Shown: in pieces, positions 7,367 to 50,962 of the stretch
How the letters are laid out: every line of letters begins with the position of its first letter
Position numbering within the stretch: position 1 is the first letter of the stretch
NCBI GenBank assembly: GCA_000091205.1
Contig: AP006496.2
Source of the DNA: Cyanidioschyzon merolae
Lineage: Eukaryota
DNA: 64,000 nucleotides
Direction: 5' to 3' (one strand)
Notes under the pieces: model-generated
Told to the model about the DNA's origin: nothing
The model's input: the letters and a program-made list of their open reading frames with translations, nothing else
The model's database searches: none
Position numbers and translations under genes: made by a program

Positions 7367-8461
7367 TCATGCTGCCGAGGTATCCGACGGGTCCAGGGTC
7401 CACGAGGTGCCTCCGGATACCACCGCCTGTTCCCGCGTTCGCGTACTTTGCACCGAGTCATTGCCATCGGGCAAAGAATCTGGTGACGTGCTTCGTTCAC
7501 AATTGACCTGTGAACCTGTCGCATTCAAGCACGCGACCTCTGCCCGAGACGCAGCTGGCGAACGTTTGCGTTGGGGAAGCACCTCGTTCAGCGCCTGGGA
7601 CCACGACTGACCTGCAGCCACTCGAGCGAGTGCCTCGAACGCATGGCAAGTAGTGAGCACCGGAGAGCCTCGCCACGAAGGTAACAGCTCCAGCGGGAGA
7701 CGGCGAGCTGGCAATCCCAGTGTCTGCGCTCGCTCGAGCATCAGTCCTTTCAGGCGGTTGCGATCTACGATGCCGCCCAGGATGTAGAGCGTATTCGGTT
7801 CTACCTGCATGAGCGTCTGCGTTGCATCGGCTGTAAGAACCACTGCGTCGATAGCACCAGCGGTTTCAGCGAGATACGAGGCCAAGTCGCTGCTGGTCCA
7901 GGTGATGCTGGGCCAACGCAGTGCCTCTTCACCGAAGACCTGGCTCCGGATATCAAGCGCTCGCGTATCTAGTCCGCAAATCGTCACTTGGAAGGTACAT
8001 ATGTGTTCCTGTTTCCGCAACAGGGCTTCACGTACGAGTCGTCTGTTCACAACGTACATTTGACGAAGTTGGATGATGCTCTTGCGCAGTTCTTTGGAGG
8101 TGAGCAATGCGCTCGCTCCCAGATCAACGATGCAGTGAAAGCGTCGAGATATTTGCTGAGAATGTGTGCATTGGAGATAGTCTCGTATCAGGCGTTCGAG
8201 ACCTCTTGTTGAGGCATCTGTTACATGAGTTTCACCAGATTGTCGTTCGCCTGTTGTGTCGAGTCCCGCGAGCGTCTGTGAGGTCTCCAGTTGACGCCGC
8301 TGACGCCTCCGCTGCTTCGCTGCTGTTCGGCGCTCCGCTCGCCTCGCAAGGTACAGCTCGTGTCGAAGACGACGCTTTCTTGCTTTCTTTGACTCTGGTA
8401 TTGAGGCTGAAGGTGTCCGATCCGATTCGAGGTCCGGAACACGAGCCCCTGGAACTGACAT
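7367..8461 (-). CDS. TRM10: tRNA (guanine/adenine-9-N1)-methyltransferase, TRM10 family (SPOUT)
   Basis: 364-aa ORF with ATG at 8461. Basic N-terminus (KKARKRRLRHELYLARRAERR), then a core with VVLTADA...LYILGGIVDRNRLKG...GLPARRLPL...VLTTCHAFEAL. This matches the TRM10 signature (YIIGGlVD.n..KG, a.LPi) as recalled. Confidence 0.8.
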   Translation of the reverse strand: MSVPGARVPDLESDRTPSASIPESKKARKRRLRHELYLARRAERRTAAKQRRRQRRQLETSQTLAGLDTTGERQSGETHVTDASTRGLERLIRDYLQCTHSQQISRRFHCIVDLGASALLTSKELRKSIIQLRQMYVVNRRLVREALLRKQEHICTFQVTICGLDTRALDIRSQVFGEEALRWPSITWTSSDLASYLAETAGAIDAVVLTADATQTLMQVEPNTLYILGGIVDRNRLKGLMLERAQTLGLPARRLPLELLPSWRGSPVLTTCHAFEALARVAAGQSWSQALNEVLPQRKRSPAASRAEVACLNATGSQVNCERSTSPDSLPDGNDSVQSTRTREQAVVSGGTSWTLDPSDTSAA

Positions 8462-9793
8462 GCACCAGAGCGCGGCTGCAGCCTTGCCGGTTGCTACGCA
8501 GATCGCTCGCTACGCTCGAGTGTCCGAGTGGTACTGCGCGCTTCGGGTCAGGTAGCTGCTGGGTGCACCCAGATAACGCGCAAAACGGGATCGCTGCACG
8601 ACAAGCAAAACCGGTTGCTTCCCAGGAACGCTGAACGACTCGGCAAACGAGTCTGGCGTTGGAGGCAGAGCGCGTTGCTCCCGACGATATCGTCGTTCGG
8701 TTCGTGCTTCGTGCGCCTGGTTCGAGTTCAAAGCAACACGAGTACCCGATGATACAAGCAAAGAGACGGAAGGTTCAGTCTTTCATCAAACGCAGTTTAC
8801 CTACAGTCCTGATGATTGCGTGTTCGCTTACACCGAAACGTATCCTGAACCAGGGAAAATGTCTGCTGGCTGGAGTGCTCGACCTCGGGGCGGCCTCTAC
8901 CAGCATGCGTCACACGTTGCCGCCCGTGTATTCCTGCAACCTAAATAAGGACGATGACGTAGATGGTGATACTTGCGAACCACTCTTAAAAGGCAAGTGA
9001 ATCACAGAGGCTTCGTAGATACCAAGAGCAGTTCGGGCTCTTTCGAGGAAACCGCCGAACGCTACCTGTGCAACATTTTGTATGCTACCGGAAACACCGG
9101 GGCGACTCGCTTGTCAGCTATGCAGCCTTTCCGCAGGAAAACGGGTACCGTGGGCCAGCCCTTCGTAGCGTGCGCACCACTTGGACGATTATGGTGTTGA
9201 TTCCGAATGTCCGTGTCAGTCGGGTCGCTGTGGTTTCTCGAATGCTGCATCTTGCGTCTTGCACGTATCAGAAAACTATCCCAGGCGACTTGCCCCAAAC
9301 AACCATAGATTCGTCTTTACCGAGAAATATCCCCGGCATCGGCTGAGCCAGCGAGAGTTCTTGTGAAAGCAACGAGCACTGCTAATCGTCTTGAGCAACA
9401 TGAACCGGTGTTGCAGTTCCAGACAACATGGTTTGCCCGAACAGATGCTTCGCAAACAGGTTTCCTCTGAATTCGAGATTCTCCGTCTATGCACCATTGT
9501 AGCCGATGCTTGATTATAACCTTGCAGCTTCGTTGCATGCCATGCACTCTGCTCTCTGTGATTCGTGTTTATGTACGTACCTTGTCGGTGCTTGATTCTA
9601 AGCTTGCATCTCCGTCGCAAGCAAGTTCCTTTTGCATTCTACGATTCCTGTTTATGCACTATTGCAGCCGGTGCGCGGTGATGCGCTCTGCACCCTTGTC
9701 GGAATGCACTGGGGCAGGTTCCCGAACACTGGTGTACTCGTTGAAAATTGGGTCTCTTCCACTATCGATAACAGCAGCTGCTGCACGCTTTTT

Positions 9794-10580
9794 CTGTGAC
9801 TGCATCCTTTTCGACACCCTGATCCTCATTAGACCGGTCTCTGCTCACTCTCGCAGTCCTTTGACAAAAGTCGCCGGACGTTGTTGGCAGTGTTTGCGTC
9901 CCGATTTCAATGTGTTCGGCTATTGTCGACATAATCCACATACAGGCGAACGTTGCAAGCTACGCCTCGCTTGTCATTTTCATCTTCGATGCGTAGAGCA
10001 TCGGTGCACAGGGCGCAGCGATGATTCCTAACGACGATCAACTGCTCCCGTTCACCCATCACAAATTCCTCTTCCCGTTCCATGTCTTCTGGAGCATGAA
10101 CGCTTGTTTCTTCGCTCGGCGCATGCCGCTGACGCCTACGCAGGGTGCACCTCCGACGCCCATACCTTCGTTTCCGCGCCCGGCGCCGTACCCTACGATT
10201 CCAGGCCTCGTCTGGGCAATCCCTCGGGCGGGGACGCTGTCCGCTAGATGCACAGGCGCACGCTTCTCCACTCGATACGTAATTCGTGGAACGGGGTGTT
10301 GTCTGTGGAGAAACACGTGCCACAAGGCGAATCGACGCCGGGGAACAAGGCGCGGAATTGCGATCTGTCTACGCTCGCCTCGTGCAAGGCGCAGTCGCAC
10401 GCTGAAACGGAAGCGATCACTGTGATGACTCAACTGCGAATCAATGATCAGTCTGATGAAGTTGCTGTGGAATTCTGCTTTGCGAGATGCGTTGACTAGA
10501 AGGCGATTTGTCTTTTGAACGGAATCGATAATGTGCTGGGAAAATCCCAATCAACTTTCGGATTGAGCTTATGAACAGGC
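9794..10580. repeat. Dispersed repeat R, copy 1 (787 bp, near-identical to 15154..15940)
   Basis: Base-by-base comparison with copy 2 at a constant offset of 5360 bp finds 5 mismatches (9807, 9974, 10339, 10555, 10563) and no indels. The ORF-track translations are duplicated on both strands. The origin is unresolved and no family could be assigned. Confidence 0.95.
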
Positions 10581-10650
10581 CATCAAACGACGACGACGTG
10601 TTCTTTGACGCACCCGCCTGTCCAGTAGTGCGACTTGTTGCGCACACGAC

Positions 10651-10890
10651 TTGCCGTGATAGATTGAAACGTTGAAGCATGCGTGAATCGCGCACGCTAC
10701 TCCTAAAGCAAGCAGCAGACTGGAACCTTGTTCTGTGAACAAAACAATACTATCGCTTATATTCCGAAATAGAGGTCGAGGGCATCGCGAATCACCTTGA
10801 TTCCGGTGAAATAACGAGTTCGAGGAGCAGCGCTTCGAAGGTGCCTTCGCGAAAAGACGTCCGGGATTCCTAACATCTCACGTGCGCTCC
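10651..10890 (+). repeat. Diverged element E, copy 1 (possible decayed copia-type protease region)
   Basis: Aligns by eye with 16018..16245 and 29475..29705. Shared blocks include a(t/c)aat(g/a)(a/c)tatcg, ttgatt(t/c)cggt and (g/a)a(a/t)tcctaa. The plus frame reads GIANHLDSGEITSSR (compare LDSGASxH). Confidence 0.6.
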
Positions 10891-11525
10891 CATAAGCCTT
10901 CTGCTGCTCCACGTTCACATTTCGTCAATACATCTAAAATCAATTCAGAACAAAGTCTCAGTGCTCGAATCGATTGAGCATTTCCGCGTTACGCTTTCCC
11001 CAAGCGCCACTGCAGGCCAACGAGCGCTGCTGTGCCGTACGAGCCCGCAGCGTCGACAGCGGCGACGGTGTCGGGGCGCCCGACAACGCTGGCACTCGCC
11101 CCTTGCATCGGTATGCAAAGCGTACCTCAAGCAACGTCTACTTCGCATAGGTGCACTGCACTTGGGTTTTTGTAGCTTGCTGGATCTAGTTATTCCAGAG
11201 TAGCGCAGCGTGCGGCTGTTTGAGCGCGTTCCAGGCTTGGCAGCGTTCCGCGAAGCCCGAAGCAGAACGTCGCTAGTGGACGACGCGGCTGCGGCAGAGG
11301 CAGGTGCAGGCGCCCGGCGGAAAGCACACCAGTGTAGCAGCTATTGTGTGCGCTTACCCAGGTGAGTGCTGGTTGAGGTTTTAGGTTTGAGTGCGTCGGC
11401 TAGGTGCTCAGAGCATAACCTCTGAGACGCGAACGCGTAAGCGCCAGCTGCACGTGGAAACAGGGGACGTCTGCGGACAGCAGCCTGTGGCATTGCTTCC
11501 GTAGCCTAGGCCGGAGCCACATAGT

Positions 11526-14231
11526 ATGGTGAATATAGTTTGTAGGAGGGGTTTGCTGGGGCAACTTGCTCGGTCTGGAGCAGCACTTTTGCACACGGTA
11601 GACGTGGGGGCCGGATCGTCACGGCGCGTTGCTGTTCGCACTGTGGTTGATTGGAGTCCAGCTGTACAGCAGGCGCGTCTGCCGTTGGAAGCAAACGCTC
11701 AGAGCTCGGTACAAGTTGCAGATGAGCGCCATTTGAGGCTTTTCGACACGTGCCGAAGAACTTGCGAGCGGTGGAGCTCCAGTCAAAGCGGCACGAGCGT
11801 CACTGGTAACGACTTGGCCGGCGTCTCGCTTCGAGTGTTTCCACGAAGGCATCGTGCTGCCAGCACGGCGACGCGCAAGTGTGCCGTGGTAGACGCTGCC
11901 GGCCTCAGAGCGCTGCTGCAGGCGAAACCTAAGCCGCCACTGCTCACCCTGGACTGGACGGAGCGGGTAGCGCGAGGGAGGTCGACGTCAACGCTCGCAG
12001 AGCGCTGGCGTTGCAGCTGGCGGGCGCGACCTCGCATTGAAAAGGCACCCCAGCGATGTCAAAGCACGTCGCCATCACCATCCTCGTCTTCGTCCTCGTC
12101 CTCGTCCTCGTCCTCGTCGTCGTCATCGTCGTCGTCGTCTGCTGCAGGCACAACCGGGGGTTCGTCGCGTCTCTTTACCAATCGATTACGAGGGCGCTCA
12201 CAATACCTAGGAGAGCGACTTCACAGAGCATTGCATAGGGTACGCTCTTGGTTAGCACAGCTTCCAGCACGCACGCTGAAGACCATCGAGTCGTTCGCAA
12301 AGCGGCTCTGGAGAGAGGTCGTGGCCTGCATTCGCCAGCCATCACGCCTTGTCATGCATTATCGTCACGCAAAGCAGACGATAACCGACTTTATTCATCA
12401 TTTCTGGACTGGTACCAAGCTGCTTGCGGCAGATGCTCGCTTGTCCTGGCGCATCATCAAACGCTTGGCGCAAGGCAAACAGCTCACTCGTCGAGAGCGC
12501 AACATTCTGATCGGGACCGGCAGTGATCTAGCGCGTTTGGTTCCATTTTCTTTCTTTATTATTGTTCCTTTTATGGAGTTTGCCCTGCCGTTGGCGTTGA
12601 AACTCTTCCCAAATATGATTCCCTCTCATTTTCAAGACAAGAAAAAGAAGGAAGAGGATATGAAACGCCAGCTCAAGGCGCGTATTGAACTCGCCAAGTA
12701 CTTGCAAGATGTCGTAGAGGCACAGGCGCTGATGATTCGTAACCAAGCTTCAGCCGGTGATGATGTTCGCAAACTGGCGAGTGAGCTTTCCGAGTTTCTG
12801 CAGAAGCTCCGCGAAGGTCATCCAGTGGATAAGTGGGATGTGCTGCGCTTCGCACGGCTTTTCAAGGATGAGATCACGCTTGAGAACGCCACTCGGGAAC
12901 AGCTCGTGGCCATGTGTCGATACATGGGCATTGCTCCGCACGGCAGTGACAGCTTTCTGCGCTATCGTTTACGGGCCAAGCTCGCGTCCATCAAGAACGA
13001 CGACATGCTCATTGCGTGGGAAGGCGGAGTCAAGAGCCTCACCGATGACGAGGTCACACAGGCGTGCCGCGATCGCGGTATCCGAACCGAGGGCCTGCCC
13101 ATTGAGCACCAGCGACAAATGCTTGCCGAATGGATTGAAATGTCGCAGAATCGCGAGATCCCCGGATCGCTCATGATCCTATCACGCGCATTCTTCTACA
13201 CCATGGATCCCGACAAGGCACTGGAGGCGACGCTCACTTCGCTACCGCATGAACTCGTGCAAGGCATGCAGTCCTCGGCTGAGGCGGCGGATGACGCCAT
13301 CGAAGGTGTTGGTACATCTGAAACTGGAGCCGAACACCGGAGTGAATCGGAGCGGCGTCTAGCTGAGGTACGACGCCACGAACGCCTCATGGAGCTTGAG
13401 GAGCAAAACGCTGCGGAGCAGGCAGCAGCAGCAGCAGCAGCAGCTGCTGCTGCTTCAGCGAAGCCAACAACGGATCACGAGTCCGAGGCGGCTGCGGTGA
13501 CGTTGCCAGCTAGCGCCGCTCCCGAGGCAGCTGCGATCGAACGCATACGCGAAGCAGAGCTTGTGCCGCCAAGTCCACGTGAAAGCAGCGTTGCTGCCGC
13601 GTCTGCAGTCGAAACCGAGGCTGTCAAGGCTGGCACCGGGCCCGCCACCTCCTCGGACAAGCTTCTGGACCGGCACCTGGCCGAGCTCAATGTTGCTGAT
13701 CGGAAAGAGGCGGTGGCAATGATCAGCACTGCATTGGAAGAAATGCTGCATCCGATCGTATCAAAAGAGCGGCAGGAAATAGAACAGTTGAAAATGGAGC
13801 TCGCCCAAGCTGTTGCGAACAGCGCCGGACCCAATGCCGCTACGACAGCTGAAATAGAACGCTTGAAGCGCTTCATCGCGCGCCTGGAGGAGGAATGCAC
13901 GCTCGTAGAGCAAAAGGTGGGCGACGCGCTCAAGCTTCTCGACCGGGATAACGACGGCTTCATCTCCGTGAAGGAGATCGCCGATGCGATTGCTGAGCTG
14001 CGCTATGGTCAACCGCTCACTGCGGGCCGAAGTGCAGCGGGCATTCGACCGCCAGGCCTAGAGAGCCGAGTCGACCCCGACTCTGTCGCTGCCGAAGTGC
14101 TCCGCCGGCTTGACCTGGACGCCGATGGTATCATTCAGCCGGACGATATTCGCCGACTGGCAGCTCAGGTTGCTGCGGAGCGACTTGGTCATAGACAAGC
14201 TGCTTCAGCAGCTGCATCGAAGAGCGAATGA
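11526..14231 (+). CDS. LETM1: LETM1-family mitochondrial inner-membrane protein (K+/H+ or Ca2+/H+ exchange) with C-terminal EF-hands
   Basis: 901-aa ORF from ATG 11526 with an Arg-rich N-terminus. The LETM1 core reads LTRRERNILIGTGSDLARLVPFSFFIIVPFMEFALPLALKLFPNMIPSHFQ. Coiled-coil regions follow. EF-hand loops are DRDNDGFISVKEIADAI and DLDADGIIQPDDIRRL. Confidence 0.9.
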   Translation: MVNIVCRRGLLGQLARSGAALLHTVDVGAGSSRRVAVRTVVDWSPAVQQARLPLEANAQSSVQVADERHLRLFDTCRRTCERWSSSQSGTSVTGNDLAGVSLRVFPRRHRAASTATRKCAVVDAAGLRALLQAKPKPPLLTLDWTERVARGRSTSTLAERWRCSWRARPRIEKAPQRCQSTSPSPSSSSSSSSSSSSSSSSSSSSAAGTTGGSSRLFTNRLRGRSQYLGERLHRALHRVRSWLAQLPARTLKTIESFAKRLWREVVACIRQPSRLVMHYRHAKQTITDFIHHFWTGTKLLAADARLSWRIIKRLAQGKQLTRRERNILIGTGSDLARLVPFSFFIIVPFMEFALPLALKLFPNMIPSHFQDKKKKEEDMKRQLKARIELAKYLQDVVEAQALMIRNQASAGDDVRKLASELSEFLQKLREGHPVDKWDVLRFARLFKDEITLENATREQLVAMCRYMGIAPHGSDSFLRYRLRAKLASIKNDDMLIAWEGGVKSLTDDEVTQACRDRGIRTEGLPIEHQRQMLAEWIEMSQNREIPGSLMILSRAFFYTMDPDKALEATLTSLPHELVQGMQSSAEAADDAIEGVGTSETGAEHRSESERRLAEVRRHERLMELEEQNAAEQAAAAAAAAAAASAKPTTDHESEAAAVTLPASAAPEAAAIERIREAELVPPSPRESSVAAASAVETEAVKAGTGPATSSDKLLDRHLAELNVADRKEAVAMISTALEEMLHPIVSKERQEIEQLKMELAQAVANSAGPNAATTAEIERLKRFIARLEEECTLVEQKVGDALKLLDRDNDGFISVKEIADAIAELRYGQPLTAGRSAAGIRPPGLESRVDPDSVAAEVLRRLDLDADGIIQPDDIRRLAAQVAAERLGHRQAASAAASKSE
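12075..12142 (+). repeat. (TCC/TCG)n coding microsatellite (poly-Ser tract in LETM1 N-terminal region)
   Basis: Sequence reads tcctcgtcttcgtcctcgtcctcgtcctcgtcctcgtcgtcgtcatcgtcgtcgtcgtc, translated as a run of more than 20 Ser. Confidence 0.9.
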
Positions 14232-15153
14232 GTAAACGACCACGTTCAAATCTGAGGACGGCTGCTCAACCGCCACTGCGTTCACTCCAGGGCCAGAGTG
14301 CTGCCCATTGTCGCTGGCAGTGTGCTAGAATTCGTCGCGACCAGAGCCGTGCACGCGGCAGCCAACGTTGTGGCTGCTCCAGGACGGCAAGTGTGCGTTC
14401 CGCACTGCGCTGGTTAGCTCGAATCGACCGTCCAAGTGCGTCAACCAGGCGGGTGCAGTTCTGGTGAAGGGTCCTCTGGAGGTGCTCCCAGGCCTCTTCT
14501 CGACGCCTTCCCCCGTTCATGCGTAGCGGCAGTGCACAGCGCCACGCCTGTATCGGTGCTGGTGGCAAGTGTGCACGTCCAGTGCACCGGACGCGCAGGG
14601 CAAACCGACGCTGCGGTGGAGGCGCGTGCTGTGTGCCGCCACGCAAGTGTGCCAGCGATACCCAGGTACCGTATTACATGCAAGTAGGAAGAGCGTTCCT
14701 GCGGGGTGAGGGGAAAAGCACACGACGAGACAATGTGTGCAAGGTGAGCAGTCACTTGGTCTGTCCCAGAGCGGTGATCGCGGCAATGTATCTAGCGCCT
14801 GAAGAAGCGCCTGCGACAAGCACCACTCGCTCCGGATTGCCAGATGGATCGTGCCTCTGCTTATGTTGCGAATCCTGATCAGAGGCTCAATGGATATTGT
14901 AGTGTCTGGAGTGATAGAGCGAGGTATGCAGGCCTCTTTCCCGGTTACCGGGAGCGTTCGGCGGACCTCGATGCATCTGGTTCATTCCGTTGACTGTGCA
15001 TTGCGGGGAACAACGGACGCCTTACGCTGGGCGCACTACCACATACATGGCGGAACGAAATGGAGGAGGTGTCACCTGGCGACCTCGAGTGGGCACACTA
15101 ACTTTTGGGTCTCTCTTTGAAAGGTCATCAACATCAGCGATGACGTGCTCGTA

Positions 15154-15940
15154 CTGTGACTGCATCGTTTTCGACACCCTGATCCTCATTAGACCGGTCT
15201 CTGCTCACTCTCGCAGTCCTTTGACAAAAGTCGCCGGACGTTGTTGGCAGTGTTTGCGTCCCGATTTCAATGTGTTCGGCTATTGTCGACATAATCCACA
15301 TACAGGCGAACGTTGCAAGCTACGCCTCGCTTGCCATTTTCATCTTCGATGCGTAGAGCATCGGTGCACAGGGCGCAGCGATGATTCCTAACGACGATCA
15401 ACTGCTCCCGTTCACCCATCACAAATTCCTCTTCCCGTTCCATGTCTTCTGGAGCATGAACGCTTGTTTCTTCGCTCGGCGCATGCCGCTGACGCCTACG
15501 CAGGGTGCACCTCCGACGCCCATACCTTCGTTTCCGCGCCCGGCGCCGTACCCTACGATTCCAGGCCTCGTCTGGGCAATCCCTCGGGCGGGGACGCTGT
15601 CCGCTAGATGCACAGGCGCACGCTTCTCCACTCGATACGTAATTCGTGGAACGGGGTGTTGTCTGTGGAGAAACACGTGCCACAAGGCGAATCGACGCTG
15701 GGGAACAAGGCGCGGAATTGCGATCTGTCTACGCTCGCCTCGTGCAAGGCGCAGTCGCACGCTGAAACGGAAGCGATCACTGTGATGACTCAACTGCGAA
15801 TCAATGATCAGTCTGATGAAGTTGCTGTGGAATTCTGCTTTGCGAGATGCGTTGACTAGAAGGCGATTTGTCTTTTGAACGGAATCGATAATGTGCTGGG
15901 AAAATCCCAATCAATTTTCGGAATGAGCTTATGAACAGGC
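15154..15940. repeat. Dispersed repeat R, copy 2
   Basis: See copy 1. It is in direct orientation, and the two copies bracket LETM1. Confidence 0.95.
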
Positions 15941-16017
15941 GCCCAAGAGAGAACACCCCATGATTTCGTCATCCAATCGGCGGCGCGCATTGCTGCACCC
16001 AATACTTGCTGTGCGTA

Positions 16018-16245
16018 GGTCGAAAGCTTGACGCATCCGCGATGTGTGCTTGCTGCTTATAAAGAAATGAAACGCGTGGACGCTTTACGTATGATTTACA
16101 TAATGATATCGTCTATTTTGCGACCATTGCCCAAGATTGTCGCGATTGAGAATGATTTCGGTTTTAACGAGTTCCAGGAACAGCGCGTCAATGGAGCCAC
16201 TTCCAAACTTCGACCAAGAATCCTAGAACGACCTGGGAAATGACG
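16018..16245 (+). repeat. Diverged element E, copy 2
   Basis: Aligns with E1 and E3. The ORF 16028..16243 translation (..YIMISSILRPLPKIVAIENDFGFNEF..KLRPRILE) parallels the E3 ORF 29486..29704 (..YWIMISVMLRTLVRDVVIHLDFGVAKHTSS..KSRPRILK). Confidence 0.65.
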
Positions 16246-16702
16246 AGCCGTCGCTGCTGCTCGCTAAGCAACGATGCTGTACATCAGAGGGATACTTTGG
16301 AAATAAGTCTCGAGCCTGGACTAGAGCGTACAGTTCAGTGCCCCATGTTCATCGGACACGGTATAGCGTCGCCAGGAAGACGCGGCTATGCGCCCGTTGC
16401 AACGCAACAGCAGCGATTGCGTTTCGAGGGTGTCGCCGCATCGGCGCTGGGCGGCGGCGGCGGCGGCGTCGACGACACATGCGTGCACTACGCACGGATA
16501 TCCGTGCATGTCGCGGATACGTGTACGAGGACACTTGCGTGCGTGCATGCGTACTTGCGTCTGAAACTGCCACGAGTTTCACTCAACTTTTTATCTTTGG
16601 ACCTGCTAACCAATTTGGAAACGCTTTCAATCCTCACATTCTACGTCCACGCGTGCTGTCTCGGGCGTGATCTGTGACGATCACCGGTGTTTGGAAGGTT
16701 CC

Positions 16703-17773
16703 ATGGAGCGCGACAGCCGCCGTGGTTACGGCCGGGGCGCTTTCTCTCGCGGTGGTAGTTACAGTCGAGGCGCAGGTCGTCGCGGTGGTGGGAATAGTGG
16801 TGCTGGTGGTGGTGGTGGTGGCGGCGGATCTTTTGGTGGACTGGCACCGCGGGGCGGTGGAGGATTCAAGCCCGGTGCGAACGCTCGTCGTGAAGGTGGT
16901 GGTCCAGGCAGGGGACGCGGCGGCGGCGGCGGCGGCGGCGGCGGCAGCTGGCGAGGCGGCGCCAGTCGAGGCCGCGCTAGTCGAGGACGTGGCGGGTCTG
17001 CAGGTCGTGGCGCCCCGGGTCGCTCGTTGAGAGGTGGATCACGGGTTCTTGTTGAGCCGCACCGTCTCCCGGGTGTCTTCATCGTTCGCGGTAAAGAGGA
17101 TGCGCTTTGCACGAGAAACCTGATTCCCGGCGACACGGTTTACGGTGAGAAACGCGTGTCCGTTGAGGCCGTCGATCCGAACACCGACGAAAAGCGCAAG
17201 ATCGAGTACCGAATATGGAACCCGTTCCGGTCCAAGATGGCGGCGGCGATTCTCGGTGGCATTGAGCGCTTCCCCATCGGGCCCGGTACCAAAGTGCTTT
17301 ACCTGGGCGCAGCGAGCGGAACCACCGTATCACATGTTTCGGACATTGTAGGCGCCAGCGGGGTTGTTTACGCAGTCGAATTCTCGCACCGGTCGGGGCG
17401 GGAGCTGGTAGCGCTGGCACAGCGTCGGCCCAATATTGTTCCCATTGTCGAAGATGCCCGCTACCCAGCGAGATACCGCATGCTGGTGCCCATGGTGGAC
17501 ACCATCTTCGCCGATGTCGCGCAACCGGATCAGTCTCGTATCCTAGCCATGAATGCAGCGTACTTTCTTAGAACCGGAGGATACTTTATGATTTCGATCA
17601 AGGCAAGTTGCATTGACAGTACAGCGGCACCCGCCGCCGTCTTCGCGAGCGAGGTAGAAAACCTCCAGAAAGAGCGATTTCGACCGCTTGAGCAGTTGAC
17701 CTTAGAGCCGTACGAACGAGATCATGCGGTGGTCATCGGCACGTACCGCGTACCACCGAAAAGCAAACCGTAA
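16703..17773 (+). CDS. NOP1: Fibrillarin (box C/D snoRNP rRNA 2'-O-methyltransferase)
   Basis: N-terminal Gly/Arg-rich (GAR) domain, then [71 protein letters not shown] and [30 protein letters not shown]. The track ORF starts at a GTG (16667). The first ATG is 16703 ([12 protein letters not shown]). Confidence 0.95.
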
Positions 17774-21631: not shown

Positions 21632-21669
<38 letters not shown>

Positions 21670-27519: not shown

Positions 27520-29474
27520 GAATAGGTTACCCTGGTATCAACGGACGCGTCCAAGGAGGCCTATGGCGTCACAGAGCTTCCCCAGAGGCAGCGTTTCTCC
27601 CCCCGTGGAAGCAACCCGAACAGACGCGAGTCCGTGCCGCTCCGACTCGTTTCGCGCCATGGATCGAGCGCTCGCATGTGAGGCATCGATGGCTGGGAAT
27701 GAATAGGGAGGATATTGTATTTGATTGTATAATGGTGGACTCTGAGGACAGTGCATGCATGATCGCGAACGGCAGCGGCACATGCGCACGCATTCGCGTT
27801 CCTTGAATGAAGTTCGAGGATGGAGGAGCTCGTACGGCACCACAACGTTGTTTTGTCTGGCGTACAGCAAGTATGGCTGTGGCGCAGTTGTCGTTGTGGC
27901 GGGCCCGCTGCTCTACGGATCGGTGGATAATGCGAACGGCCAGTCTTGGTGGGAAGGCTGCTCTGTCTTCAGGGGAGCTCCGAAGCGTCGGGAGCTGAAC
28001 GAAGATCGCTCTCGCTGACTGCGGATACAAACTGATTAGAACAAGTTCGGAACGAGTACACTGTGCAAACAAGGACGTACACCCAAAGGTTTTCGTGTAT
28101 TCCTACTGTCGCCAGCAGAAGACCTTGCGGGCGTTTTCTACGACTGCTCCTTTTCTGTCTCTGTGATCTCGGGGTTTCAAATCGCTGGGCACTCCTTTCG
28201 TTCCAGCCTTCTTGGTTACAGTCGAAGGACGTTAATGACAGCGGTTGTGTACTGATTTCGTTGTTCCAGGATGTCGCGGGCGCAGGTAATTCCCATCGTT
28301 TTCGGACGCAGCCTTTGTGCGCACGCCGCAGTGGTTGCGCTTCACTGTGGTAAAGCGTTCCCGGATGCGCGCTGCATTTTCTCCTCCGAGGGCCGAGGCC
28401 TGCCCTGTGGCGCGTCAAGGCAGGCTTTATCGCTCGGTACACGCCCTTGGTGGATGCAGAAGGCACGGTTCGATGCCCTGCTCCGTTGCCGTGCCCGCTG
28501 CCTTACCCGATCATCGTGGGCTTCTTCTGGGCGATATCCTCGGCGAGTACGCTGTCCTCTAGATGCACAGGCGTGCGCTAATCAGCTCAATAGCTCAACA
28601 TCCGCTTCCTAGCGCGCCTTTTGTTTTCTGCAGACGCCGCCCAGAAAACTTGTCGATGGGCGCAACACGCCTCAAGATACGTAAGCCAGTCTTCGGTATT
28701 GTATCCACGTGTACAAGTCGACTGCGATAATTCAGCCGCAGCTTTTGGTACATTCGTCTGTTTCGCTCGCAGGCTTATCGGAATATGCTTTCAATTCGCA
28801 CACTCTGCTGAGACGAAGATAAGAGGCGTGCGAGTAGAAGCTACCGCTGTGGCGGGAAGGCGCAGGGCTCGAACCTCGTGCCTCCAGAGCATCGGCGATA
28901 ACCACAGGGAGGTTGCAATGCGCTTTGGGGCTCACGGAAAGCGCAAGTGTTGAGGTTCGCGCTCCGTGGGTCCAGGCTGATGCAGATCGCATTGGGGAGC
29001 ACCTTCTCGCGGCCATGCATCGGTGTTGATCGTTGTTCCGCCGCGTAAGACCTCAGATATTGAGCAGGGCTTGGTTTGAGCGCTGACGATGGTGTGAAGC
29101 ATGTGTATGACGTTCGAAGTTGAAGTTGAAGTTGATGATGATGATGATGATGCTGGATGCGCGAACGCTGTCAGTCTCGTTGAAAGTCACCATGTGTTTT
29201 CGTCGTGGAGCAAACCTTGCTTTCCACCTCTCTTCCTTCACAATCACATTTATCGATCACGAGAGAGGTATCATGATGCTGTCGAATGCACTCGCATCGA
29301 TGCCAGAGACGCAGGAGTTTGTGCACCGAACGGAATCGAGCATTTGGCGTGCGAAGTTTTAGTGAACGCGCCGCATAAATATGGAATAAATTCGTCAAGG
29401 TTCGAGCTCGCTTATTCTCCCTCGTCAATAATGCGGCACGAAAAGCCTGTCTCATGAGATACCTTGAATCAGGG

Positions 29475-29705
29475 AGATCGAAAACGTGAAGCGTGCGAGA
29501 TTCGAGCTCGCCATACGTAACAAAGGAGCAGCATGGAGGCTTGAACGCCTATATTGGATAATGATATCGGTGATGTTGCGAACTCTGGTTCGGGACGTCG
29601 TGATTCATCTTGATTTCGGTGTCGCAAAGCATACCAGTAGCAGAGCGCTGGGAAAGCCTCCGAAATCACGCCCGAGAATCCTAAAACCACGTTTGAATCT
29701 GTAAG
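29475..29705 (+). repeat. Diverged element E, copy 3
   Basis: Aligns with E1 and E2. The plus frame reads DVVIHLDFGVAKHTSSR, the copy closest to the copia-type protease motif (LDSGASxHxT). Confidence 0.65.
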
Positions 29706-29977
29706 TGCTCATTGCTGCGTTGGGAGTGTCGAGACAGTGCATCGAAAGCAAGTTCAAAAAACTATTCTCAATCCAGGAGCAAAGCGAGCAGTTTAATGCT
29801 CTATTTTCATGTCAATCGGGTGCAGCGCTCACGCAGCAGGAGCATTACGATACCCGGCGCATCGATGCCGTTGTGAAGGAGAGAAGAACCTTGCACAAAC
29901 TTGGATGGCGTATGCGCATCCAACAATTCATGAGCTCCTTCGCTCCCGCATGCCGTAAACTGTTGCCGTCGACGGGT

Positions 29978-39941: not shown

Positions 39942-41170
39942 AAAGGCTTAGACACAGGAGAATAAGTTATTGAAAGCAAAGCCAAGTGCAAAGGTGCTGT
40001 GGCTCTGCACCACCCCGGCATCGGTGCTTCGCGTTCCCGCCAGCACCTGCGCCGGAAGATTCTTCGCATTCGCCGGAGGCTCAGCACCGGCAACCCTTGT
40101 GCGGTACCAGAGCGCAGGCGTCGCTCAGTATAGAGGCGCCACGGCGGATGCTGAAGGTAGACTTTGCGAAACGTAGATCGTACGCAGTGACCAGCATCTC
40201 CGAGATACGTTTGGGTAGATGCTGGTGGTTCCCGGAACGCACACTGCGGAATGATCATGCCATCCCAGATGACGATATCCATCGTGGAATCTAAGATCCC
40301 TGGTGCATGTCACTCTATGCTGTCGATCAGAAACGAATTGCTATCATGGGCTGTAGAACGCGCCCGCACGACACGGGCGATGCCGCACGGTCTTTAGGTA
40401 GCACCCGTTGCCGTTTTGCAGGAGGCTTCTGTGAAACCAAAAGTTACTGCAGGCTCGGTACCCGCGGGGTTCCTGGAACGGGATAGGTTACCGCCCCAGC
40501 AGATGTAGCTCAAGCGGTAGAAGCACGCAGTCACTACAGACAAGACGAGATGCTTGAAAGTTGGAGGTTCACGCGTCCAAGGCGGTCCACTGGGGTACCA
40601 GACATGTGAAATCCGCTGGTGTTGAACCGAATTTGCGGTATCTCGGGGAAGCCCATGTATCCTCCATGTACGCTCATACAATTGGGCGCACGGATAATGC
40701 GATCGTTTCATCGCCATTGCAATATACAAGAAGCGGAGGGAATCTATCATCCGGTATCTTGGTTGCTCACACAGCTCGACACTGAGGTTAGATGCAACAT
40801 GCTCGGATGGTGCGCTTTGCAAAAGCATACCTGCAGCGGGTCTACGTCTCCCTAGATGAACACTGCACTGAAATTGCGGGACAGAAGCGTCCGCTGAACA
40901 TACCCGGTCTATACTTCGACATTTGGCAGCGTTTGCGCTTCCACGCGCGTCTATTTAGGGTCAGTAATCCAGCGTCTTCATCAAATGACGAGATCGGTAA
41001 AGACTACTAACCGCTAGAGCGGTTGTGTCGCATGACCTCATCCCGCGACAATGGATATCGATCCATGATATGGGCACTCATGTCAGAATCAAGTAGAAAA
41101 TGATCCACTTTGGTGAATCAGGTGTCCAGTCTAAAGTTTGGGTCTCGTCCCGCATTCATGAACCATGGCC

Positions 41171-42443
41171 TTTGGGGGCTTTTTTTTCTCGGCGACAGCT
41201 TCCAGTCGTTCTCTTCTTTACATCAAGATCAGTTTTCAGCAGTCGAGGGATGGATGTTGATGGCAGCGTTCAACGCCCGAATTCCCTGCTTTCCGCTACG
41301 TTCTATTCATTGAGCCGACAGACGCTACATGCGATCTACGCTTCGCATACGATACTCTTTTCTTCTGTATACAGCCTCGGTGCGCACGTCGCACCGTTGA
41401 CAAATGAATGCACAGGGGCGCTCCCATGCGCCCACGAGACGCGCTACTTACGGACAGCCGCTTTGTGGCGCTTGGACGTTGGCGTCATCGCCCGTTACAC
41501 ACCCTTGGCGCGATAAACAAGGCTGACCCAGAAATGCCCTCCGCAGTTTCCGCACCCGGTGTTGTGTCGCAGGTGCACGGGCTTGGTCTGTGCGATGCCC
41601 TCAGCGCATGCCCTCTGAACCGCACGCGCAAGAGCAAGCAGCACCACTCGATACAGGGTTTGCGGGACGCTTTCTTCCACGTCTTGAGACCAGTACCAGA
41701 CCGAACATCTAGACTTGAGAGCAGGTCGAGAAAATGCGATCCGTCTACGCCCCCGTTCATGGAAAGCGATGGCGGTCGTACCGCCAAATGCGATCGCATC
41801 GATGACTCAAGCGCGAGTCCAAGACCCTTTGCTGGCAAACAGATGAGCCGCCAGCCCCTGAGTGCATACCCCCTGAGAGGCACCGTGCCGCTGCCGTCGG
41901 ATGCCGAATGACATGTCGTCGACGGCCACCAAGAGCGGAGGGTATGTGTTTCGAGCTGAATCTGTTGCTTGATGAGACAGGTTCAGTGAACTTTCGGCAT
42001 GAGCGTCTGGGAAAGTCTCCAAAGCTGATGTAGAGTTTTTCCCCGTCGTCGTCCATCCAGCGGCGATGCCTGCTGCGCCCTCGTGCTGCCTTGAAGCAGA
42101 ACCATCGAAAACTTGAAGAATTCGGTATCTGAGCGTGCTGCAGGCAAGGAATGTTGAAACGCAGAGTCCGCATCGTATGATTCGGATAGTGCTCCCGTTC
42201 ACGTTACGAAGCGTAGATCGAGGGCGTCGACACTCCCCTTGTACCGTGCACATAACGATTTCCAGCGGCAAGGAGTCGAACGAGCCACTCGGAAAACTCG
42301 ACCGAGAACCCGGATTCAATGAATGCATCTGATAGCGCTCAATGCGGCATATCTACTGCCAACGCTCTACATCTACAAAGCAAGACTGAGAATGCAATCG
42401 CAAGGCAGCAATTGATCGAACGGTTCAGTGCTCCATTTTTATG
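41171..42443 (-). mobile_element. Repeat family P, copy A (1.27 kb): decayed Ty1/copia-like RT-RNase H remnant, sense on minus strand
   Basis: It is the reverse complement of 44168..45440 (paired coordinates sum to 86611; 173-aa and 167-aa translations appear on opposite strands). The repeat status is certain. The copia assignment is tentative (about 0.4); see copy B. Confidence 0.7.
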
Positions 42444-44167
42444 GTGGCAGGTGTATAGAGTCTAGGATATGGTTTAAGGCGCAATATGGATGACGAAATG
42501 TAACGGATTGTCGCGGCATGAAGAGAAAATTTTAGATGTACGAGTATTCATGAAGCCAAGACTGTACTCATCTGACGAGCCGCTGCAAGCGACACAGTAC
42601 AAGTAACGCTGATCATTTTGACGATAGTGGACATTTTTCTTGTTGTGCATTGTGTACAACCTGGCGCATAAGCAGCGCGCGCTCTCCAGCAGTGGCTCTG
42701 CACCGCGACCGCAACTACCTCGTGTATTACACAATTCCCGCAACAGAGTACGCTCACCATCGACATGATCCGTCTCTAGTTGCGCGCTTACGGCGTTACA
42801 AGTTCCAGCTGGCGGCTATTCTGACACTATCGGGAAGTGCTCTGGTTGCAGACGGAGAACCGGAACCAGCGCGACGAAAGAGCTGCAGTCGAACCGCAAT
42901 TCTCTGATGCAAAGGTTCACAGAATGCTTCGTTCGTGATGCAGCGTGGAGAGAAGCAGTGCGCTCCCTCCATTGCCCCAAGTTCCTTTTCGTGAACTGAC
43001 CCGCAGGCACTACGGGCATCTTCCTGATACCGCCAGTCCGTTTATTGTTGCTGCTCGGGCAACTTGAAGTGCTAGACGGTTTCTGCTAGAAAACCCGCCA
43101 AAAAGCTTGCTATACGGCGTTTACATATGAATCTGCCTAGTAACCCTAGTCGTCCGGCGTTCTCGCTGGCCGAGGAGAACGTTGTCACTTCGGAATGCAG
43201 ATGCTGGCGCGACATCCTCGGCGCGATGCATTGCTGCCCAGAGAGTTCCACAATCGAATTTGTCTGTTTCGTGTCTGCCACAGCATGTGGAATACAAATG
43301 TTTGCCGAACAGAAGATTGAAAGTTCTCCAACAGGTCCGGTCGCTGCAGTGTGCAACGCCTGCGGAGGCGCTCCCGCGTTCGAGGTTATTTATTCAGAGG
43401 GTTTCAGGCACTCACGGTTTAAAAGCATGAACCAGACCCGATCGCACAACGGCTCGTACGATAGCTGTCGCTGTGTCGTCTTCGATACGCCGTGGCGAGG
43501 CACTGGCAAAGCTACCTCTCCATCAGTCCCTGGTGTGGCGCTGAGCTCGTGGCCCCAGGCTCTGAAGGTCTGGGGGCCCTTGGCTTCGCTGCAAGCGCGA
43601 GTTTTCCGTAAACAATGTTCGTAAAACTCTTCCAAAGCCTCACACAGACCACGATTCGATTCGTGCACGCCCATACCGTCAGTGCACCCGGCGTCAGGCG
43701 TGTCGTAAAGGTAACACTGGAGCCCGCTCGTTGCCCTGTTTGGAGGACGCTTGTGTGCTGTGTTGCAACTTGCTCGCCGAGCCACAGTCGTTCGCTAAAC
43801 GCACCAATTACACCATGTTAATCTCAAGTCCGAGTAGAGCACTGTTCGAAACGTCCTCTTTATGCCAGAGTCGAGAATGGCTCTTATTCGCAAACGGTCT
43901 GAAAGAAATAATGCGGCGGGTGTGCGGCGTCGCCCGTGTTCATCGAATATCCTGCATCGAGTTGGTGCTGCCAGGAGGATATTGTCGTGAATATCGATCA
44001 ACATTCATCCAAGACGCATGTACCTCCGGAGGGAAATATGGAGAGTAGTGGTTCGAACTTGAATCTACAGAGCGGTATCATGGATGCTCACGCTGAAACC
44101 GATAACCGTCACAGAATCAGGGCTCCCTGCTTTATGTCAATATTCTTCGACACTACACTGGCGACGG

Positions 44168-45440
44168 CATAAAAATGGAGCACTGAACCGTTCGATCAAT
44201 TGCTGCCTTGCGATTGCATTCTCAGTCTTGCTTTGTAGATGTAGAGCGTTGGCAGTAGATATGCCGCATTGAGCGCTATCAGATGCATTCATTGAATCCG
44301 GGTTCTCGGTCGAGTTTTCCGAGTGGCTCGTTCGACTCCTTGCCGCTGGAAATCGTTATGTGCACGGTACAAGGGGAGTGTCGACGCCCTCGATCTACGC
44401 TTCGTAACGTGAACGGGAGCACTATCCGAATCATACGATGCGGACTCTGCGTTTCAACATTCCTTGCCTGCAGCACGCTCAGATACCGAATTCTTCAAGT
44501 TTTCGATGGTTCTGCTTCAAGGCAGCACGAGGGCGCAGCAGGCATCGCCGCTGGATGGACGACGACGGGGAAAAACTCTACATCAGCTTTGGAGACTTTC
44601 CCAGACGCTCATGCCGAGAGTTCACTGAACCTGTCTCATCAAGCAACAGATTCAGCTCGAAACACATACCCTCCGCTCTTGGTGGCCGTCGACGACATGT
44701 CATTCGGCATCCGACGGCAGCGGCACGGTGCCTCTCAGGGGGTATGCACTCAGGGGCTGGCGGCTCATCTGTTTGCCAGCAAAGGGTCTTGGACTCGCGC
44801 TTGAGTCATCGATGCGATCGCATTTGGCGGTACGACCGCCATCGCTTTCCATGAACGGGGGCGTAGACGGATCGCATTTTCTCGACCTGCTCTCAAGTCT
44901 AGATGTTCGGTCTGGTACTGGTCTCAAGACGTGGAAGAAAGCGTCCCGCAAACCCTGTATCGAGTGGTGCTGCTTGCTCTTGCGCGTGCGGTTCAGAGGG
45001 CATGCGCTGAGGGCATCGCACAGACCAAGCCCGTGCACCTGCGACACAACACCGGGTGCGGAAACGGCGGAGGGCATTTCTGGGTCAGCCTTGTTTATCG
45101 CGCCAAGGGTGTGTAACGGGCGATGACGCCAGCGTCCAAGCGCCACAAAGCGGCTGTCCGTAAGTAGCGCGTCTCGTGGGCGCATGGGAGCGCCCCTGTG
45201 CATTCATTTGTCAACGGTGCGACGTGCGCACCGAGGCTGTATACAGAAGAAAAGAGTATCGTATGCGAAGCGTAGATCGCATGTAGCGTCTGTCGGCTCA
45301 ATGAATAGAACGTAGCGGAAAGCAGGGAATTCGGGCGTTGAACGCTGCCATCAACATCCATCCCTCGACTGCTGAAAACTGATCTTGAAGTAAAGAAGAG
45401 AACGGCTGGAAGCTGTCGCCGAGAAAAAAAAGCCCCCCAA
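44168..45440 (+). mobile_element. Repeat family P, copy B: decayed Ty1/copia-like RT-RNase H remnant
   Basis: Reading across three frames in order gives GKTLHQLWRLSQ (cf KSLYGLKQ), PPLLVAVDDMSFG (cf LLLYVDDMLI), LPAKGLGLA (cf FEMKDLGEA), SLSMN..HFLDLLSSLDV (cf LSQ..YI..LL.RFGM), YRVVLLALARAV, and HFWVSLVYRAKGV (cf HW.A.KRILRYLKGT). Order and spacing fit an RVT_2-type RT followed by RNase H, but frameshifts and stops are present. Confidence 0.7.
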
Positions 45441-49884: not shown

Positions 49885-50962
49885 AATGCATTCATAGAAT
49901 CCGGGTTCTCGGTCGAGTTTTCCGAGTGGCTCGTTCGACTCCTTGCCGCTGGAAATCGTTATGTGCACGTTACAAGGGGAGTGTCGACGCCCTCGATCTA
50001 CGCTTCGTAACGTGAACGGGAGCACTATCCGAATCATACGATGCGGACTCTGCGTTTCAACATTCCTTGCCTGCAGCACGCTCAGATACCGAATTCTTCA
50101 AGTTTTCGATGGTTCTGCTTCAAGGCAGCACGAGGGCGCAGCAGGCATCGCCGCTGGATGGACGACGACGGGGAAAAACTCTACATCAGCTTTGGAGACT
50201 TTCCCAGACGCTCATGCCGAAAGTTCACTGAACCTGTCTCATCAAGCAACAGATTCAGCTCGGAACACATACCCTCCGCTCTTGGTGGCCGTCGACGACA
50301 TGTCATTCGGCATCCGACGGCAGCAGCACGGTGCCTCTCAGGGGGTATGCACTCAGGGGCTGGCGGCTCATCTGTTTGCCAGCAAAGGGTCTTGGACTCG
50401 CGCTTGAGTCATCGATGCGATCGCATTTGGCGATACGAGCGCCATCGCTTTCCATGAACGGGGGCGTAGACGGATCGCATTTTCTCGACCTGCTCTCATG
50501 TCTAGATGTTCGGTCTGGTACTGGTCTCAAGACGTGGAAGAAAGTGTCCCGCAAACCCTGTATCGAGTGGTGCTGCTTGCTCTTGCGCGTGCGGTTCAGA
50601 GGGCATGCGCTGAGGGCATCGCACAGACCAAGCCCGTGCACCTGCGACACAACACCGGGTGCGGAAACGGCGGAGGGCATTTCTGGGTCAGCCTTGTTTA
50701 TCGCGCCAAGGGTGTGTAACGGGCGATGACGCCAACGTCCAAGCGCCACAAAGCGGCTGTCCGTAAGTAGCGCGTCTCGTGGGCGCATGGGAGCGCCCCT
50801 GTGCATTCATTTGTCAACGGTGCGACGTGCGCACCGAGGCTGTATACAGAAGAAAAGAGTATCGTATGCGAAGCGTAGATCGCATGTAGCGTCTGTCGGC
50901 TCAATGAATAGAACGTAGCGGAAAGCAGGGAATTCGGGCGTTGAACGCTGCCATCAACATCC
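49885..50962 (+). mobile_element. Repeat family P, copy C (1.08 kb, truncated at both ends relative to copy B)
   Basis: Collinear with B at a constant offset of 5603 bp (B 44282..45359) and in the same orientation. About nine amino-acid-changing differences are visible in the duplicated ORF translations. Confidence 0.7.

Follow-up and report, generated by a model that had tools for sequence, protein, structure and literature searches.

Introduction

Yeast Ty/delta elements, human low-copy repeats, and the palindrome arms of the Y chromosome are examples of interlocus gene conversion and concerted evolution. The case described here is a pair of direct repeats, R1 and R2, flanking the LETM1 gene on chromosome 14 of Cyanidioschyzon merolae. 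It resembles interlocus gene conversion in that an abrupt near-identical tract lies in older paralogy, the core and flank trees conflict, lineage-specific substitutions are common to the paralogs, and the partners are close to each other on one chromosome. It differs in its substrate, which is a small, non-coding, and unannotated intergenic family whose host genome is among the most repeat-poor of eukaryotes.

Genes can also be amplified or excised at direct and inverted repeats, as Ubeda et al. reportedly described for Leishmania in 2014. Similarly, LETM1, RelA/SpoT, and RRS1 of C. merolae each lie between direct repeats that measure from several hundred bp to 1.3 kb, and another pair of repeats is inverted. 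On the other hand, the only hints of circles or amplification here are two metagenome contigs (L014 and L022) that are possibly assembly artifacts.

As two direct repeats of ~0.8 kb placed ~5.4 kb apart, R1 and R2 also look like an LTR retrotransposon or a pair of solo LTRs. However, they have no TG..CA ends, target-site duplication (TSD), PBS/PPT, or gag/pol, and their flanks are homologous to each other. A novel interspersed repetitive element of C. merolae occurs in 253 copies with an average length of 3.2 kb and contains a truncated ORF weakly similar to WSV486 of WSSV (Nozaki et al. 2007, PMC1955436). The family to which R1 and R2 belong is likewise C. merolae-specific, interspersed, and intergenic, but its members are shorter (1.35–1.46 kb) and carry no ORF signal, features that do not fit the description of that element.

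Homologous recombination and gene conversion are performed by C. merolae in experiments (PMC3764038), and cassettes are excised by direct-repeat recombination in Cyanidiophyceae (PMC13353863). Here we analyzed a window of 64,000 nucleotides of the C. merolae 10D genome (contig AP006496.2 of assembly GCA_000091205.1), and coordinates below are positions in this window.

Results

A near-identical core ends abruptly on both sides of LETM1

LETM1 (11526..14231, plus strand) is a single-copy gene recognized by Pfam matches to LETM1_RBD (E = 1.3e-76) and EF-hand. It starts at either ATG 11526 or ATG 12354, and conservation among homologues begins near 12321–12374. The left neighbor is the gene for TRM10 tRNA methyltransferase (7367..8461, minus strand; Pfam and full identity to the C. 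merolae 10D protein BAM81200.1), and the right neighbor is the fibrillarin gene (16703..17773, plus strand; Pfam Fibrillarin, E = 8e-103).

LETM1 lies between the R1 core (9794..10580) and the R2 core (15154..15940), both on the plus strand. In self-BLAST of the window, the two cores align over 787 bp at an offset of 5360 with 99.365% identity, 5 mismatches (at 9807, 9974, 10339, 10555, and 10563), and 0 gaps, just as an earlier note on this DNA had described the direct repeat around LETM1. The note had also described sharp edges. When R1 and R2 are compared at the fixed offset in 50-bp windows, identity indeed falls from 0.98–1.0 in the core to 0.2–0.3 within one window on both sides. Such abrupt boundaries around a near-identical tract are characteristic of interlocus gene conversion.

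A repeat like this could be an assembly or duplication artifact of the reference. Metagenome contigs do break exactly at the R2 start, indicating that assemblers struggle at this locus. However, complete R1 is present in independent assemblies from several Yellowstone samples, the left junction of R2 is present in contigs L002 and L003, and the right part of R2 continues through a unique flank into fibrillarin in L007. Furthermore, R1 and R2 are distinguished by their 5 mismatches, and the 10D genome has been finished from telomere to telomere (PMC1955436). We regard an artifact as next to impossible.

The core lies within older paralogy

When 9400–11200 was used as an nhmmer query, the R1 locus at 9689..11071 was found homologous to the R2 locus at 15040..16422. 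These plus-strand stretches, which were also delimited with family profiles, are full-length members of one repeat family, and each contains its core. Homology outside the core had been noted earlier as patchy on both sides, and this holds well downstream but weakly upstream. On the downstream side, the R1 3′ flank by itself (nhmmer query 10581–11200) finds the R2 3′ flank, 10624–11072 matching 15979–16423 with E = 1.2e-21. The best-conserved block of this diverged flank, E1 (10785..10845, plus strand), was delimited by local alignment with its partner E2 (16140–16198). The alignment score is 41, compared with 21.4 ± 2.1 for shuffles, and the block is kept across all lineages of the family. 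On the upstream side, the motif ttgggtctct does occur before both cores, at 9748 and 15105, but the ~100-bp 5′ flanks show no significant homology when taken alone, and their relation is seen only via the family profile.

R1 and R2 are 99.4% identical in the core but only 57.4% and 53.7% identical in the 5′ and 3′ flanks, respectively. The flanks of R1 and R2 are 44.7–59.2% identical to those of family copies A, C, D, and X (see below), the same as to each other, and the core of either is 49–58% identical to all other copies. For the R2 3′ flank, copy D is a slightly better match (E = 8e-24) than R1 (E = 6e-22). Since R1 and R2 are almost identical in the core but no closer than other copies in the flanks, the tree of the core conflicts with that of the flanks, R1 and R2 being sisters within the tract and not within the flanks. 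The idea of a near-identical core inside much older, diverged paralogy is thus upheld, with flanks only 54–57% identical, which is the distance to any family copy.

R1 and R2 belong to a family of ~1.4-kb repeats

The R1 and R2 cores are the centers of full-length copies of one non-coding intergenic family of ~1.4 kb, which has 6 copies within 42 kb in the window. With the R1 locus query (9400–11200), the other window copies were found at nhmmer E values of 1e-57 to 1e-60. Copy D (28066..29809, plus strand) is old and unconverted and contains an insertion of ~680 bp. It was detected by nhmmer in two pieces (E = 1.4e-27 and 7.9e-21) and scored 1016–1163 with the family profile. Copy A (41071..42443, plus strand) and copy B (44157..45437, minus strand) were located by self-BLAST, nhmmer, and the family profile, and copy C (49886..51134, minus strand) by self-BLAST and nhmmer. 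Copy B is inverted relative to copy A and direct relative to copy C. Copy A shares 99.6% identity with copy B over 41174–42443 and 99.2% with copy C over 41252–42328. In copy C, a 1077-bp core is ~99% identical to A and B, while its 5′ part and 3′ end have diverged.

Copies B and C bracket the RelA/SpoT gene at 46204–49125. This is the second host gene that the earlier note had placed within direct repeats, and its repeats turn out to belong to the same family as R1 and R2.

At least three further copies (X1, X2, and Y) form a 12-kb cluster on chromosome 19, which brings the family to at least nine copies (6 in the chromosome 14 window and 3 on chromosome 19), a lower bound for the 10D genome. 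A scan of metagenomes for a sequence pattern had suggested that no family member exists outside this window. This was rejected because the pattern, built on the window copies alone, does not match copy Y.

The copies are similar in length, and identity between family lineages is ~50–57%. A 51-nt block has 31 constrained positions that are common to the R, A/B/C, D, and X lineages. The 3′ end of the family homology coincides among copies at the motif GTTCAGTGCTCCATTTTCAT, and the 5′ end is near the motif TTTGGGTCTC.

The mosaic structure of R1 and R2 recurs independently in the family, as the 1077-bp core that copy C shares with A and B sits inside diverged ends. On chromosome 19, X1 and X2 are 99% identical over 1329 bp, and family homology reaches 56–68 nt past this tract. 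The near-identical tracts vary in length by pair (787, 1077, 1270, and 1329 bp), and all converted partners are on the same chromosome and at most 10 kb apart. Comparison of GC content between converted and unconverted segments gave no clear signal of GC-biased conversion.

No signatures of recent insertion were seen

With ~0.8-kb direct repeats 5.4 kb apart resembling an LTR-internal-LTR arrangement, the 787-bp sequence could be a mobile element newly inserted on either side of LETM1, as a solo LTR, as the LTR pair of a single element, or as two fresh copies of an active transposon. The dispersal of the family also fits insertion, as its nine copies lie in two clusters and none is found at the syntenic Cyanidiococcus sites. 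In those intergenic regions, which are 0.9–4.2 kb shorter and not alignable to the level of exact empty sites, we found no family copy.

However, the sequences flanking the 787 bp are themselves homologous, with the E value of ~1e-21 given above, and a fresh insert would need to hit exactly the same part of two old copies. At the tract and family boundaries, no TIRs, hairpins, or LTR or Helitron-like ends were recognized, and neither TG..CA termini nor TSDs (4–6 bp for LTRs) were seen, although the copies are old. What would be the internal region is LETM1 rather than gag/pol, and its gene order is conserved with Cyanidiococcus. Scanning of JGI metagenomes for the R-type block, with a pattern built from window copies, picked up no locus other than R1 and R2. 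R2 is older than the strain split, yet the paralogs have strain-specific changes in common (next section). Besides, no LTR retrotransposons have been reported in C. merolae (PMC1955436). A new insertion, which the earlier note had considered a poorer fit, is extremely unlikely.

The family also has no similarity to the relics of a ~3-kb ORF-bearing repeat at 30.6–33.8 kb and 60.4–61.9 kb and on chromosome 19. For a TnpB-like ORF, PDB sequence searches returned no match.

We infer that the family may be a mobile element, or one duplicated locally, that has since decayed. For A/B and X1/X2, the identity could conceivably reflect recent transposition, because their tract covers nearly the whole element.

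R1 and R2 change together in different strains

In Yellowstone strains that are ~99% identical to 10D, metagenome contigs place both R1 and R2 at the same sites as in 10D. The known Yellowstone R2 sequence consists of the first 53 bp (L003) and 15362–15940 with the downstream flank (L007). L007 and the R1 contigs come from different metagenome samples, and we assume that they represent the same strain.

At 10119, 10450, and 10476, both 10D paralogs have one base, and Yellowstone R1 and R2 have another. A 1-nt deletion at 10143 and T at 10271 are common to Yellowstone R1 (L013, L018, and L020) and Yellowstone R2 (L007), and both are absent from R1 of L001 and L002. While the paralogs R1 and R2 differ at 5 sites, orthologous R1 copies differ at 8–16 sites. 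The A/B/C group behaves likewise, as its paralogs are fixed for one state in 10D and for another in the Yellowstone strains at 41702, 41796, 42011, and 42040.

Lineage-specific changes thus occur in both paralogs, with the reservation that Yellowstone R2 is incompletely covered and was not sampled together with the R1 contigs. As read from these alignments, the strain-specific changes common to R1 and R2 are concerted evolution.

Two observations on the metagenome contigs are added here. Loci L010 and L017 were considered as a possible second species, which was rejected because an L017 protein is identical to BAM83022.1 of 10D and L010 is contiguous with L024. Contigs L014, without RelA/SpoT, and L022, without RRS1-IPPT, join the flanks of different copies and may be misassembled.

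The core is not under detectable constraint

Purifying selection could also hold two copies identical while the flanks drift, if the core is an unannotated functional gene such as a structured RNA, an lncRNA, or a small ORF. This was an alternative raised in the earlier note. In its favor, blocks such as the above-mentioned 51-nt block are kept across all old lineages, the copies have similar lengths, and long ORFs are present on the minus strand of several copies.

On the other hand, divergence of the core between strains is 1.0–2.0%, compared with 0.64–0.75% in surrounding DNA. Because the core diverges no slower than its surroundings, selection cannot account for the 99.4% identity of the paralogs. 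Loss of identity within 50 bp is not an effect of selection either.

Searches for RNA or coding signals agree with this. Rfam gave no match in the repeats, either in the whole window at the gathering threshold or in 8400–16800 at E ≤ 5. When both strands of four independent lineages were scanned with sliding alifold/SCI windows, no SCI value exceeded 0.35 and the median was 0.06, the power being limited by the use of 4 sequences at ~53% identity. In tblastx between lineages, the six frames score alike and none is favored. Codon-position periodicity is absent among the core mismatches and weak and inconsistent in the 3′ part, and family indels include lengths of 1 and 2 nt, not multiples of 3. 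Pfam matched none of the ORFs in the core or other copies. A conceptual ORF of 285 aa has no homologues among 5.8 billion proteins outside the element's own cluster, and nothing is annotated at the R1 and R2 cores in 10D. The long minus-strand ORFs were rejected as coding, since several overlapping frames are open at once, and are attributed to strand composition. Selective constraint on the core as the cause of its identity is very unlikely.

Function could reside in the family as a whole. The ~1.4-kb family could be a functional non-coding module, such as an lncRNA gene or an element of chromatin or replication, with conversion holding its copies alike. Or its direct-repeat pairs could, in this haploid alga, be substrates for reversible excision or amplification, through extrachromosomal circles, of LETM1, RelA/SpoT, and RRS1, much as in Leishmania. 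The conserved blocks and the contigs L014 and L022 are compatible with these ideas but are not proof, and we consider them very improbable.

Discussion

The identity of R1 and R2 very probably results from recurrent ectopic gene conversion between neighboring old repeats. A recent conversion tract had been suggested in the earlier note, and the old diverged flanks, the strain-specific changes in both paralogs, and the lack of insertion signatures all speak for it.

Because only 5.4 kb separates R1 from R2, and DNA repair in this genome relies mainly on homologous recombination, a break in one copy could be repaired with the other as a template. The pathway would be ectopic gene conversion without crossover, with synthesis-dependent strand annealing (SDSA) as the probable route. 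Repeated overwriting of the central 787 bp would hold the center at ~99.4% identity, while the ends of R1 and R2, lying outside the tract, would keep diverging. LETM1 itself is a conserved single-copy gene that merely happens to sit between two family members and has not been mobilized. The same conversion process would also account for A/B/C around RelA/SpoT and for X1/X2 on chromosome 19.

The R1/R2 case is ordinary genome biology and calls for no new mechanism. It is clear evidence, at the sequence level, that ectopic gene conversion continues in natural strains of C. merolae. In an organism used as the 'simplest' eukaryotic genome, with almost no repeats reported, a small, unannotated, and locally clustered family is documented, and the repeat annotation of the genome is extended by this ~1.4-kb family. 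For genome engineering by homologous recombination, LETM1, RelA/SpoT, and RRS1 are flanked by near-identical direct or inverted repeats of 0.8–1.3 kb. In hot-spring metagenomes, the family bears on how assembly breaks and apparent deletions are read.

Genomic setting of the repeats

The window comes from the nuclear genome of Cyanidioschyzon merolae 10D, a red alga. The TRM10-like protein encoded at 7367-8461 (-) is identical to BAM81200.1 of this strain, and exact 10D protein matches were also found for CMN081C (39309-39941), the RelA/SpoT homologue (46204-49125) and the ADP/ATP translocase (51528-52511). The order UTP20 (191-6706, +), TRM10, LETM1 (ORF at 11526-14231, +), fibrillarin (16703-17773, +) and ATR (18694-27519, -) is also present in Cyanidiococcus yangmingshanensis. 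Incidentally, the start codon of LETM1 is ambiguous: the frame is open from ATG 11526 (901 aa) and the next ATG after 12321 is 12354, metagenome gene calls begin at the position corresponding to GTG 12321 in 10D, and homologues align only from ~12374, which is 71% of the ORF.

The interval 27520-46200 (~18.7 kb) is unusually gene-poor for C. merolae. Annotated 10D proteins confirmed there are only DUF962 (35694-36311) and CMN081C, the remainder being repeats and relics, and at most one further gene is possible between ATR and DUF962, as judged from consecutive protein accessions. Short tandem or near-tandem repeats lie at 9442-9508 (against 9607-9673), 3389-3465, 36481-36593, 36731-37067, 39027-39231 and 63792-63957; just upstream of R1 is a weak duplication spaced ~165 bp (E=3e-4), and elsewhere are several arrays with periods of 6, 18 and 112 bp.

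A near-identical core in old paralogy

The 787-bp direct repeat that the earlier note described around LETM1, R1 (9794-10580) and R2 (15154-15940), was exactly recovered by self-BLAST with 5 mismatches (9807, 9974, 10339, 10555 and 10563), no gaps and an offset of 5360. Its edges are as sharp as claimed; in 50-bp windows at fixed offset, identity is 0.98-1.0 throughout the core and 0.2-0.3 directly outside.

The older paralogy proposed outside the core is real, but strong only downstream. By strict local alignment, the upstream flanks have only the 10-mer TTGGGTCTCT in common, which is within the range of shuffles, and the downstream flanks share a 61-bp block (10785-10845 vs 16140-16198) scoring 41, against 21.4 ± 2.1 for shuffles. 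With nhmmer, which is more sensitive for this comparison, the query 9400-11200 extends the homology to 9689-11071 vs 15040-16422. The R1 3′ flank alone retrieves the R2 3′ flank (E=1.2e-21), whereas the short 5′ flank by itself gives no significant nhmmer match.

The same query detected four further copies in the window: A (41071-42439, +), B (45408-44157, -), C (51134-49900, -) and a degenerate D (28066-28594 and 29272-29809, +). Within the window, profiles made from the copies returned exactly these four plus R1 and R2, and none further. Copy D carries a ~680-bp insertion (28595-29271) relative to every other copy, including a (GAAGTT)n(GAT)n microsatellite.

A, B and C are the window's other 99%-identical repeats, whose tracts of 1077-1270 bp (41174-42443, +; 44168-45437, -; 49886-50962, -) bracket the RelA/SpoT gene. 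A and B are inverted relative to each other over 1270 bp, with a 1.7-kb spacer, and B and C lie in direct orientation at a distance of 5603 bp, with RelA/SpoT between them. The spacer between A and B holds an unannotated 165-aa ORF (43127-43624). Because they were retrieved with the R1-locus query, the repeats flanking RelA/SpoT, noticed earlier as a second host gene in such a setting, are the same element as R1 and R2.

Core and flanks differ in apparent age. R1 and R2 are 99.4% identical in the core, and either is 49-58% identical to the other copies there. In the 5′ flank the values are 57.4% between R1 and R2 and 44.7-59.2% to other copies, and in the 3′ flank 53.7% and 48.0-56.2%. The flanks of R1 and R2 are therefore no closer to one another than to those of the rest of the family, and for the R2 3′ flank copy D even gives a higher score than R1. 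Because their flanks are as distant as those of other copies, R1 and R2 are, judged by these identities, old and independent family members with overwritten centres. The lineages R, A/B/C, D, X and Y (X and Y on chromosome 19, below) are roughly equidistant, at 50-58% identity.

Family copies outside the window

A degenerate 51-nt pattern describing the family's best-conserved block was used to scan JGI metagenomes. Yellowstone contigs ~99% identical to 10D were found for all six window copies, plus L008, L010, L017 and L022, and the R-type version of the block occurred only at the R1 and R2 loci. Another species as the source of L010 and L017 was ruled out; the protein on L017 is identical to 10D BAM83022.1 and L010 is contiguous with L024, which places a second family cluster on C. 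merolae chromosome 19. This cluster comprises X2 (L024 10218-11679), X1 (L010 3520-4989, ~10.1 kb downstream of X2) and a further diverged copy Y (L024 13668-15148), with RRS1 bracketed by X2 and Y. Since the pattern misses Y, the scan is biased to copies behind its design, and the family size of nine is a lower bound.

Two metagenome contigs have unusual junctions. In L014 (JGI24721J44947_10016823), copy B is joined to the far flank of C and the RelA/SpoT gene is missing; in L022 (JGI20133J14441_1015908), the upstream flank of X2 is joined to the downstream flank of X1 and RRS1-IPPT is missing. They reflect either deleted or recombined molecules or misassembly at repeats.

In the syntenic Cyanidiococcus regions (L005 and L023) no family copy was detectable, and the intergenic spacers are 0.9-4.2 kb shorter than the corresponding C. 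merolae spacers.

Other mosaics and changes between strains

Other copies are mosaics of the same kind. In C, near-identity to A and B is limited to a 1077-bp centre; the 5′ ~180 bp and the 3′ end of C are homologous to the family but diverged. Identity between X1 and X2 is 99% over 1329 bp; with a profile made without them, homology to the family continues for another 56-68 nt upstream, in sequence that differs between the two. Y lies between X1 and X2 yet is unconverted. The tract lengths vary (787, 1077, 1270 and 1329 bp) and all partners lie on the same chromosome at most 10 kb apart, which fits distance-dependent ectopic conversion rather than insertion of a fixed-length element.

In Yellowstone contigs R1 is complete, and the contigs break at R2 or run 53 bp into it at the same position; L007 covers R2 15362-15940 with the unique downstream flank of R2. 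As R1 and R2 occupy the same positions there, the duplication is older than the strain split. Nevertheless, R1 and R2 of 10D differ at 5 sites, while 10D R1 differs from its Yellowstone orthologues at 8-16. At 10119, 10450 and 10476, both 10D copies have one base and Yellowstone R1 and R2 the other. Yellowstone R1 on L013, L018 and L020 and Yellowstone R2 on L007 all have T at 10271 and lack 1 nt at 10143, whereas R1 on L001 and L002 has neither change. These patterns require that conversion took place at least once, and probably several times, since the strains separated. Likewise, at 41702, 41796, 42011 and 42040 one base is common to 10D A, B and C and another to Yellowstone B and C, and at 41206 and 41222 the allele of A in 10D is that of B in the Yellowstone strains, and vice versa.

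Alternatives to conversion

Selective constraint, the other reading offered for the core, would keep both copies alike. However, between strains the core diverges by 1.0-2.0%, against 0.64-0.75% for the surrounding 5-7 kb; because its rate of change is no lower than that of the surroundings, purifying selection cannot hold the 99.4% paralog identity.

The suggested objects of such constraint did not emerge either. No Rfam family matched at the gathering threshold or E≤5, and in a comparison of four independent lineages the structure conservation index does not exceed 0.35 (median 0.06). Against a small ORF, the six tblastx frames score alike and mismatches in the core have no periodicity; in the 3′ part of the family periodicity is weak and inconsistent, and copies contain 1-2 nt indels. 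Family ORFs had no Pfam matches, a search of 5.8 billion proteins with a 285-aa conceptual ORF returned its own cluster alone, and the 10D annotation has nothing at the repeat positions. Long minus-strand ORFs do occur in several copies, and as overlapping frames are open simultaneously, they are attributed to strand composition.

A simple new insertion fits less well, as had been argued, given the variable tract lengths. An LTR or DNA transposon is disfavoured, as neither tract nor family boundaries have TG..CA ends, TIRs or TSDs; C. merolae is reported to lack LTR retrotransposons (PMC1955436). Gene conversion within older paralogy, the leading reading from the start, is thus upheld by a 99.4% core between flanks of 53.7-57.4% and by strain-specific changes common to paralogs.

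A second dispersed repeat

A repeat with a ~767-codon ORF is distinct from the R1/R2 family. It is nearly intact, with a single stop, at L027 8168-10468, and relics lie at 30607-31286 (-) and 60577-60657 (-) in the window, L024 7347-7577 and L010 2438-2890. In the L027 copy, the motifs DPGNTN and, at the C-terminus, NRDFNAALNI occur together with a Cys-rich segment, and we take these features to resemble the RuvC motifs of TnpB/Fanzor nucleases. Pfam gave only a faint match to Cas12f1-like_TNB (E=0.049), and a sequence search of PDB gave none. Nozaki et al. 2007 described a 253-copy ‘WSV486-like’ interspersed element, which this repeat may represent.

Mechanism and origin

DNA integrates into the C. 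merolae genome through homologous recombination, and a recognised difficulty in practice is that introduced DNA can convert the chromosomal allele (PMC3764038). Marker excision in Cyanidiophyceae exploits recombination between direct repeats (PMC13353863).

We infer the repair pathway behind R1/R2 homogenisation as follows. Given homologous recombination and gene conversion in C. merolae, a double-strand break in one copy would likely be repaired from the nearby paralog without crossover, which would homogenise the central tract. The near-identical tract would then be the preferred substrate, so that it could persist while the ends diverge. Crossing over between the two copies would remove LETM1, and in a haploid such a deletion would presumably not persist.

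Clustering, absence from syntenic Cyanidiococcus spacers and roughly constant length suggest that the family may have originated from an ancient non-autonomous mobile element that spread locally, or by local duplications. R1 and R2 are a clear case, from nature, of ectopic gene conversion. Phenomena of this kind are well known; this one involves a small, undescribed, non-coding repeat family of a model alga.
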